From assembly GCF_030013205.1 (NCBI RefSeq), contig NZ_CP122651.1: a DNA stretch of 31,040 nt. One strand, written 5' to 3'. Made by a program: the position numbers. Position 1 is the stretch's first letter. Every line of letters starts with the position of its first letter. This DNA comes from Escherichia coli. Its GTDB lineage: Bacteria > Pseudomonadota > Gammaproteobacteria > Enterobacterales > Enterobacteriaceae. Of this stretch, positions 9,001 through 12,000 are shown one piece after another.

Positions 9001-12000
9001 TGAATGGCTGCAACCAGCCTGTAATGAAATGTACCGCGTACTCAAAAAAGACGCCTTAATGGTGAGCTTCTATGGCTGGAACCGCGTCGATCGCTTTATG
9101 GCCGCCTGGAAAAATGCGGGATTCAGCGTGGTTGGCCACCTGGTGTTTACCAAAACCTACACATCGAAGGCCGCATATGTGGGCTATCGCCACGAATGCG
9201 CCTACATCCTGGCAAAAGGACGTCCGGCGCTGCCTCAGAAGCCATTGCCCGACGTGCTGGGCTGGAAATATTCAGGCAACCGCCATCACCCGACGGAAAA
9301 GCCTGTTACCAGCCTGCAACCACTGATTGAGAGCTTCACACATCCGAACGCGATTGTGCTGGACCCGTTTGCAGGCAGCGGCTCAACATGCGTCGCCGCC
9401 CTCCAGTCCGGACGCCGGTATATCGGTATCGAGCTGCTTGAACAGTATCACCGTGCCGGACAGCAACGACTGGCCGCCGTGCAACGGGCCATGCAGCAGG
9501 GGGCCGCGAATGATAACTGGTTTGAACCGGAGGCTGCGTAAATGAACTATGCCGGACACGAAAAACTGCGCGCCGAGGTGGCCAGCCTCTTCGAACCGGA
9601 GGTTGCCTCCGGAGAAGGCGTGACTCAGGCTGAACAGCCACAACAGCCACAACAGCCACAACAGCCACAACAGCCAGTGTCTTCTGTCATCAATGATAAG
9701 AAGTCAGATGCAGGTGTGAGTGTTCCGGCAGGGGGGATCGAGCAGGAGCTGAAAATGAAACCGGAAGAAGAGATGGAACAGCAACTGCCACCGGAGCACT
9801 CCGTGACGGAGTTCAGTCACAGCCAGGAAGCGAAACTGGCAGAAGCGCAGCAGAAGGCGATGCAGAACGGCGAGGCTTTTCCGGATGTCCCCATGACACT
9901 GTATGAAGCCATTGTCCGCGACTATACCGGCAGGACACCGGAAGCACGGGAGCAGACGCTGATTGTCACGCACCTGAATGAGGACCGGCGCGTACTGAAC
10001 AGCATGATTCATGATGCACGGGAAAAGGCCGGTGAGCTGGGAAAAGAGCAGGTCATGGTGCCTGTCCTGAACACAGCGAATATACGCGACGGGGAGCTGC
10101 GTCGTCTCTCCACCTGGGAGACACATCGGGACGCACTTGCCCTGGTGGATAATGTGTATCACCGGATTGCCGGTATCAGTAAGGATGACGGGCTGATAAC
10201 CCTGGAGGATGCGGAAGGTAACACGCGGCTGATTTCGCCCCGGGAGGCGGTGGCTGAAGGTGTCACACTGTACACCCCGGACACCATCCGGGTGGGGACC
10301 GGTGACCGGATGCGCTTCACGAAGAGTGACCGGGAGCGCGGTTATGTGGCCAACAGCGTCTGGACGGTGACAGCGGTTTCTGGTGACGGTGTCACGCTGT
10401 CGGACGGCCAGCAGACCCGGGTGATTCGCCCCGGTCAGGAGCGGGCAGAGCAACATATTGACCTGGCCTATGCCATCACCGCCCACGGTGCGCAGGGGGC
10501 GAGTGAAACCTTTGCCATCGCGCTTGAAGGCACGGAAGGTAACCGGAAACTGATGGCCGGCTTTGAGTCAGCCTACGTGGCCCTGTCGCGTATGAAGCAG
10601 CATGTGCAGGTGTACACCGATAACCGTCAGGGCTGGACGGATGCCATCAACAATGCCGTACAGAAAGGAACGGCCCACGATGTGTTTGAACCGAAACCGG
10701 ACCGGGAGGTCATGAATGCAGAGCGGCTGTTCAGTACGGCTCGGGAACTGCGGGACGTGGCGGCAGGCCGTGCCGTTCTCCGTCAGGCGGGGCTTGCCGG
10801 GGGAGACAGTCCTGCACGGTTTATTGCTCCGGGACGTAAATATCCGCAGCCGTATGTGGCACTGCCGGCGTTTGACCGTAACGGCAGGTCCGCCGGTATC
10901 TGGCTGAACCCACTGACCACGGATGACGGAAACGGGCTGCGGGGATTCAGTGGTGAAGGACGGGTGAAAGGCAGCGGGGATGCGCAGTTCGTGGCCCTGC
11001 AGGGCAGCCGTAACGGAGAAAGCCTGCTGGCTGATAATATGCAGGATGGTGTCCGGATTGCCCGTGATAATCCTGACAGCGGTGTGGTGGTGAGAATTGC
11101 CGGTGAAGGTCGTCCGTGGAATCCCGGTGCCATCACCGGTGGCCGCGTGTGGGGGGACATCCCGGACAACAGCGTCCAGCCGGGGGCCGGAAATGGCGAA
11201 CCGGTCACGGCAGAGGTACTGGCACAGCGGCAGGCTGAAGAGGCCATCCGCCGTGAAACGGAACGCCGCGCAGATGAAATTGTCCGTAAAATGGCAGAGA
11301 ACAAACCTGACCTGCCGGATGGCAAAACAGAGCAGGCTGTCAGGGAGATTGCCGGGCAGGAACGTGACCGGACTGCCACTTCTGAACGGGAAACCGCACT
11401 GCCGGAGAGTGTGCTGCGTGAATCACAACGGGAGCGGGAAGCGGTCCGGGAGGTTGCCCGGGAAAATCTGCTGCAGGAGCGTCTGCAGCAGATGGAGCGG
11501 GATATGGTCCGTGACCTGCAGAAAGAGAAAACCCTGGGCGGAGACTGATACAGGAAGACAAACATTGATGACAACGGATAACACGAACACGACACGTAAC
11601 GATTCACTGGCTGCACGGACCGATACCTGGTTGCAGTCGTTTCTGGTCTGGTCACCCGGACAGCGGGATATCATCAAAACGGTGGCACTGGTGCTGATGG
11701 TACTGGACCACATCAATCTGATATTCCAGCTGAAGCAGGATTGGATGTTTCTGGCCGGGCGAGGAGCCTTTCCGCTGTTTGCCCTGGTGTGGGGGCTGAA
11801 TCTGTCCCGTCATGCGCATATCCGGCAACCGGCCATTAACCGGCTGTGGGGATGGGGAATTATTGCTCAGTTCGCATATTATCTGGCCGGCTTTCCCTGG
11901 TATGAGGGGAATATCCTGTTTGCCTTTGCAGTGGCGGCACAGGTGCTGACGTGGTGTGAAACGCGCAGTGGGTGGCGTACAGCAGCGGCCATTCTTCTGA

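Follow-up and report, generated by a model that had tools for sequence, protein, structure and literature searches.

A perfect 9-nt repeat in a tra deletion scar of an Escherichia coli plasmid very probably derives from the polymorphic repeat of traD

A long open reading frame (ORF) that ends in a remnant of traI carries, close to its start, a perfect 9-nt tandem repeat encoding a QPQ tract. This raises the questions of which gene the repeat belonged to, whether it marks the place where the fusion arose, and whether its copy number varies among related plasmids. The window, that is the whole stretch of DNA analysed here, is a complete permuted circle of 31,040 bp, as whole-window comparison with E. 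coli ETEC4079 plasmid unnamed3 (NZ_CP122646.1) showed, and is 100% identical to that plasmid over the array region. We conclude, with a probability of about 0.9, that the tract is a polymorphic traD repeat that has survived as a passenger in a deletion scar.

The repeat array and the three parts of its reading frame

Tandem Repeats Finder detected a perfect 9-nt array at window positions 9633..9676 on the plus strand (period 9, 4.9 copies, 100% matches, 0 indels, score 88). Read directly, the sequence consists of four units of CAGCCACAA at 9635..9670, followed by CAGCCA at 9671..9676. The array is in frame within ORF 9542..11548 (+, 668 aa), where the codons CAG CCA CAA, repeated four times and followed by CAG CCA, encode 14 Gln and Pro residues. 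Both the reading of the sequence and the repeat search thus confirm the original observation of a perfect fourfold 9-nt repeat encoding QPQ in a chimeric ORF. The length of the array is far above chance expectation: no other perfect periodic tract in the window reaches its 44 nt (periods 4-12; the runner-up has 20 nt), and the longest such tract in 100 dinucleotide-preserving shuffles of the window was 24 nt. Two minus-strand ORFs over the array (9336..9668 and 9383..9670), which give VVA and WLL repeats when translated, are without support and were considered spurious. Elsewhere in the window, a 141-nt tandem repeat (26730..27037; 2.2 copies, 78% matches) falls within ORF 26116..27183, for which RefSeq gives the product 'DNA-binding protein'.

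Using ORF calls, alignments and profile searches, we assigned the following features to the ORF and the sequence directly upstream.

8858..9541, plus strand: DNA methylase gene (N6_N4_Mtase), directly upstream; its stop codon abuts the chimeric ATG (TAAATG)
9529..9533, plus strand: Shine-Dalgarno-like sequence GGAGG, 8 nt upstream of the ATG at 9542
9542..11548, plus strand: in-frame three-part chimeric ORF of 668 aa (ORF call, alignment, profile searches)
9542..9582, plus strand: 5' remnant with 13-14 codons of a 73-aa hypothetical leading-region gene (alignment to pP136-3)
9579..9792, plus strand: internal 3' fragment of traD, corresponding to TraD residues ~600-697 of the 750-aa pP136-3 protein (alignment, profile match)
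9789..11548, plus strand: 3' third of traI, TraI residues 1171-1756 (99.95% identity to pP136-3 traI)

The reference for these comparisons was pP136-3 (NZ_CP080226.1), a closely related intact conjugative plasmid from pig E. coli (pig ETEC) that has in common with the window the sepA, TIR, parM, DUF1281 and methylase backbone as well as the same traX and finO proteins. At the 5' side, window positions 9300..9582 are 100% identical to pP136-3 (L003 10176..10458) and cover the 3' end of the methylase gene together with 41 nt from the start of the 73-aa gene (WP_001104879.1 in pP136-3), which lies directly 3' of the methylase gene in intact relatives. At the 3' side, window 9789..11700 corresponds to pP136-3 traI from codon 1171 and runs on into traX, and ORF residues 76-668 match the NCBIfam TraI profile at positions 1164-1752.

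The segment between these two parts, which contains the repeat, had been described as an unassigned N-terminal portion of a TraI-remnant ORF. Closer inspection showed that it is traD, so that the two-part picture gives way to a chimera of three parts from a leading-region gene, traD and traI. A query of 9542..9795 retrieved genes annotated as traD (type IV coupling protein) from thousands of F-like plasmids, with up to 99% identity over 9571..9792, and a query limited to 9571..9792 retrieved 3,879 plasmid records with at least 80% coverage, the best with 99% identity to annotated traD. At the protein level, ORF residues 7-88 match positions 593-686 of 735 in the NCBIfam F-type TraD profile PRK13700 (E = 1.3e-21). 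The fragment comprises 214 nt from the region coding for the C-terminal extension and includes neither the ATPase domain nor the C-terminal TraM-binding tail. In pP136-3, the array lies at TraD residues ~618-658, after the Pfam TrwB_AAD_bind domain (172-561).

The only Pfam domain in the chimeric ORF is TraI_C (ORF residues 377-534). Pfam and NCBIfam profile searches found no relaxase domain in the ORF, and a Walker A motif was not found in it. A functional TraD needs an N-terminal membrane domain, an ATPase/DNA-binding domain and the TraM-binding tail, and the 5' 1.8 kb and the last 163 nt of traD are deleted here. A functional TraI needs the N-terminal relaxase domain and helicase ATPase motifs, and the profile match is limited to TraI 1164-1752. 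RefSeq annotates 9791..11548 of the ORF, as a pseudogene ('TraI domain-containing protein, missing N-terminus'), and leaves 9542..9790 blank, missing the traD fragment and the kept start codon. The 249 nt that separate the methylase gene from the RefSeq traI pseudogene can be annotated as the start of the leading-region gene and the traD fragment. With the GGAGG sequence, the chimera has probably kept the start signal from which the small leading-region gene is natively translated, and this signal might drive translation of the fused ORF.

Two microhomology junctions bound the traD fragment

Three-way comparison of the window with the parental sequences placed both junctions at base resolution.

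9579..9582, plus strand: junction 1, 4-nt microhomology TGGC common to the leading-region gene and traD
9789..9792, plus strand: junction 2, 4-nt microhomology CACC common to traD and traI

Relative to pP136-3, the first deletion removed 41,162 bp (the remainder of the leading region, oriT, and everything from traM to the end of the 5' 1.8 kb of traD) and the second removed 3,677 bp (the 163 nt at the 3' end of traD and the 5' 3.5 kb of traI). The tra deletion of this ETEC plasmid can therefore be described to the base, with two 4-nt microhomology junctions. The long chimeric ORF exists because both deletions preserve the reading frame, an outcome expected by chance in 1/9 of cases.

The array begins 51 nt downstream of junction 1 and ends 113 nt upstream of junction 2, and therefore marks neither. 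It had been suggested that the repeat might mark the deletion junction, and one could go further and suppose that slippage or recombination at the repeat created the TraI-remnant fusion, as the repeat sits in the short non-traI head of the ORF and deletions can be mediated by short repeats. We give this explanation virtually no credence. Besides the distance from both breakpoints, intact traD genes carry the identical array, bordered on each side by the same 30 nt, and the TGGC and CACC microhomologies are unrelated to the repeat unit.

Placing junction 1 instead at the second copy within the GAGGTGGC duplication of the small gene, where the microhomology would have 6 nt (TGGCCA), needs either an additional loss of 9 nt or a single-copy allele of that gene. 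No single-copy allele was seen, and all sampled alleles stop matching at window 9582, so the 4-nt junction is preferred. The duplication itself is a near-tandem 9-nt repeat of the small leading-region gene, GAGGTGGCG GAGGTGGCC, encoding AEVAEVA (pP136-3 L003 10451..10468; window 9574..9582 onward), and junction 1 falls exactly inside it.

Searches of 72,556 plasmids and 5,426 complete E. coli genomes detected neither junction in any other record, and the scar is therefore private to this plasmid. Intermediates with just one of the two junctions were likewise absent from PLSDB and the 5,426 genomes of E. coli, and two deletions in either order or a single complex event would fit equally well. 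We envisage either two microhomology-mediated deletions or one complex template-switch event, which would have cut out ~41.2 kb and ~3.7 kb and left the 214-nt traD fragment with its repeat fused in frame between the 13-14 codons of the leading-region gene and the 3' third of traI.

Another F-like plasmid with tra deletions, NZ_LR882494.1 from a red-fox E. coli (L011 3726..4854), resembles the window in having large tra deletions and the 3' end of traD with its repeat beside a truncated traI. It differs in its breakpoints, which are independent: one deletion runs from traB to the 3' part of traD and the other is an in-frame deletion within traI, whereas the deletions in the window join a leading-region gene to traD, and traD to traI. 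It also keeps the oriT-proximal genes and the traD stop codon, unlike the window. The traI 3' endpoints of the two plasmids are 57 nt apart (NZ_LR882494.1 at pP136-3 L002 35528 and the window at 35585), a proximity that could be a coincidence or could reflect a deletion-prone spot in traI.

Copy number of the repeat in traD and its known counterparts

We counted the repeat units directly in 13 sequences and found from 1 to 26 units, in arrays that were all perfect.

F: unit CAGCCGCAA, 1 unit
pF11A: unit CAGCCACAA, 1 unit
window: unit CAGCCACAA, 4 units
p142_A (E. coli, intact traD): unit CAGCCACAA, 4 units
p3FK563 (K. pneumoniae, intact traD): unit CAGCCACAA, 4 units
pST1007-1C: unit CAGCCACAA, 5 units
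NZ_LR882494.1: unit CAGCCGCAA, 5 units
ETEC1722 plasmid (same Belgian study): unit CAGCCACAA, 9 units
pSTY1 (pSLT-like): unit CAGCCGCAA, 11 units
pP136-3: unit CAGCCACAA, 13 units
ETEC1701 plasmid (same Belgian study): unit CAGCCACAA, 17 units
pCV839-15-p1: unit CAGCCACAA, 24 units
UC4315 plasmid: unit CAGCCACAA, 26 units

Within the lineage whose unit has the Pro codon CCA, the 30-nt flanks of the array are identical or differ by a few bases. The length differences are always multiples of 9 nt and keep the frame. In a wider sample of 55 plasmids, drawn at regular intervals from the ranked list of 4,007 matching plasmids, the unit count ranges from ~1 to 20 (median 8). These counts were converted from the hit span and validated on five sequences, and they are approximate: the estimate for F-type alleles is one too high (2 against a direct count of 1) and two rows are non-integer. 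The top-ranked BLAST rows, all with at least 10 units, were left out of this distribution because scoring favours long arrays, in that two non-overlapping pieces can each span the whole query repeat only if the array of the subject is long. The expectation that copy number would vary among related plasmids was thus borne out, and invariance is refuted by a range of 1 to 26 units between identical flanks. The flanks of the window array align to the traD of intact plasmids.

Judged by its sequence, the window repeat is the motif already known as the traD QQP motif or traD 9-bp VNTR, the polymorphism of which has been described before. It shares with both the position in the C-terminal extension, the 9-nt unit encoding QPQ, and a polymorphic copy number between conserved flanks. 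Lang et al. 2011 reported a length-variable QQP motif in the unstructured C-terminal extension of TraD, with 5 residues in F and 23 in R1 (PMC3245843). The window tract has the same Gln-Pro-Gln/Gln-Gln-Pro periodicity and length heterogeneity as the motif in F, R1 and R100, and lies in the same gene at the same position, between '...GEGVTQAE' and the downstream conserved flank; its 14 Gln and Pro residues place it between F (5) and R1 (23). In contrast to that motif, it lies outside a working TraD, as only residues ~600-697 are left and are fused to fragments of other genes. In Salmonella Typhimurium, Hiley et al. 2019 described a 9-bp VNTR in traD (PSLT104) of pSLT with 5-19 copies in 220 isolates (PMC6459517). 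The locus is homologous and the period the same, and a pSLT-like plasmid carries 11 perfect units at the homologous position. Its flanking sequence, though, is just ~72% identical to the window, and the unit of the pSLT/F lineage is CAGCCGCAA (Pro codon CCG) as opposed to CAGCCACAA (CCA) in the window and the R100/R1-like lineage. Together with the published variable extension (PMC3245843) and VNTR (PMC6459517), the range of copy numbers also supports the suggestion that the repeat is slip-prone and a variable linker.

In intact TraD, the Gln/Pro-rich stretch is part of the unstructured C-terminal extension, which links the ATPase domain to the TraM-binding tail; TraM is bound by the C-terminal tail of TraD (cited in PMC3245843). 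Units are probably gained and lost by slipped-strand mispairing at replication, since the arrays are perfect, their lengths differ by multiples of 9 nt, the flanks do not change and each lineage has a homogeneous unit. The repeat resembles the phase-variable simple sequence repeats of contingency loci, which are likewise perfect short coding tandem repeats with a copy number that changes, presumably by slipped-strand mispairing. Contingency repeats, however, have a unit not divisible by 3 or lie in a promoter, whereas the 9-nt unit of the window is divisible by 3; the protein therefore changes in length while the frame is never lost. This is not phase variation: there is no on/off switching, only a change in the length of a disordered segment.

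The four units of the window contrast with the 9, 13 and 17 units of its close pig-ETEC relatives. Assemblers can collapse tandem repeats, and with longer arrays in the closest intact relatives the short array might be taken for an assembly collapse. This explanation is very improbable, as the 44-nt array is shorter than any current read length and exactly four units are present in the intact traD of unrelated assemblies, such as those of E. coli p142_A and K. pneumoniae p3FK563. The RefSeq record also has the same 4-unit array with 100% identity over the region, and is perhaps not an independent assembly. A genuine 4-unit allele could either have been inherited from a 4-unit ancestor, given that intact 4-unit alleles exist, or have contracted from an array of 9-17 units as found in the closest relatives. 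The traD repeat may be a useful length marker for tracking F-like plasmids, a use already published for pSLT, and plasmids of the same pig-ETEC study carry 4, 9 and 17 units.

Likely state of the chimera and plasmid context

Most likely, the chimeric ORF is a non-functional scar and the tract a functionless remnant, because the surrounding protein is gone, the plasmid has no oriT or type IV secretion system (T4SS), and the traI part is a RefSeq pseudogene. The alternative is a chimera that is expressed from the start signals of the leading-region gene and is functional, for example as a dominant-negative or T4SS-recognised TraI C-terminal fragment that hinders the transfer of F-like plasmids in the same cell; the QPQ tract would then serve as a flexible linker. 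Several features are compatible with it: GGAGG lies 8 nt before an ATG that directly follows the methylase stop codon; the reading frame continues across both junctions, leaving room for an expressed product; and the kept part of TraI includes the region equivalent to the translocation signal TSB (1255-1564), an intact TraI_C domain, and the C-terminal 252 residues, for which contact with TraM has been proposed in R1 TraI. We nevertheless consider it very improbable. Chance alone would give two in-frame junctions in one of nine cases, the fragment is without Walker A motif, relaxase domain, TraD ATPase and TraM-binding tail, and RefSeq labels it a pseudogene. The junctions were confined to one plasmid in the search of 72,556 plasmids and 5,426 complete genomes of E. 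coli and so give no sign of spread or selection, and the sole co-resident plasmid inspected (ETEC4079 unnamed2, first 50 kb) looks IncHI-type rather than F-like. Still less probable is the specific proposal that the triple fusion (leading-gene start, TraD linker with QPQ, and TraI 1171-1756 with the TSB equivalent and TraI_C) is translated and serves as a decoy or dominant-negative substrate of the coupling protein in co-resident F-like systems; if it were true, the triple fusion would be a fertility-inhibition factor created by deletion. The importance of the repeat here beyond correct annotation is small, and this remnant does not bear on how repeat length affects TraD function.

Consistent with the loss of the transfer functions, neither oriT nor a relaxase domain nor T4SS genes were detected in the plasmid by typing and annotation. 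Plasmid NZ_CP122646.1 (36.5 kb; pig faeces, Belgium) is typed as IncFIA and non-mobilizable. The window equals NZ_CP122646.1 minus 5,488 bp (cysteine hydrolase, DMT transporter, tet(A) and tetR(A)) between two TnAs1 transposase copies (window 20924..22185), the pattern that would be expected of homologous recombination between the TnAs1 copies.

Downstream of the scar (11568..13896), traX, a UilS-family lactonase/hydrolase gene and finO are kept, and now lie behind leading-region genes on a non-transferable plasmid; in principle, the kept FinO might still affect F-like plasmids in the same cell. The gene for the SepA serine-protease autotransporter toxin lies between two IS1 copies in opposite orientation to each other (1..4092, 4236..5004 and 29733..30501), an arrangement that suggests a composite mobile unit. 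A gene for a TIR-domain protein (4994..5635), which is common to pP136-3, adjoins an IS1 copy and the parM/stability genes.
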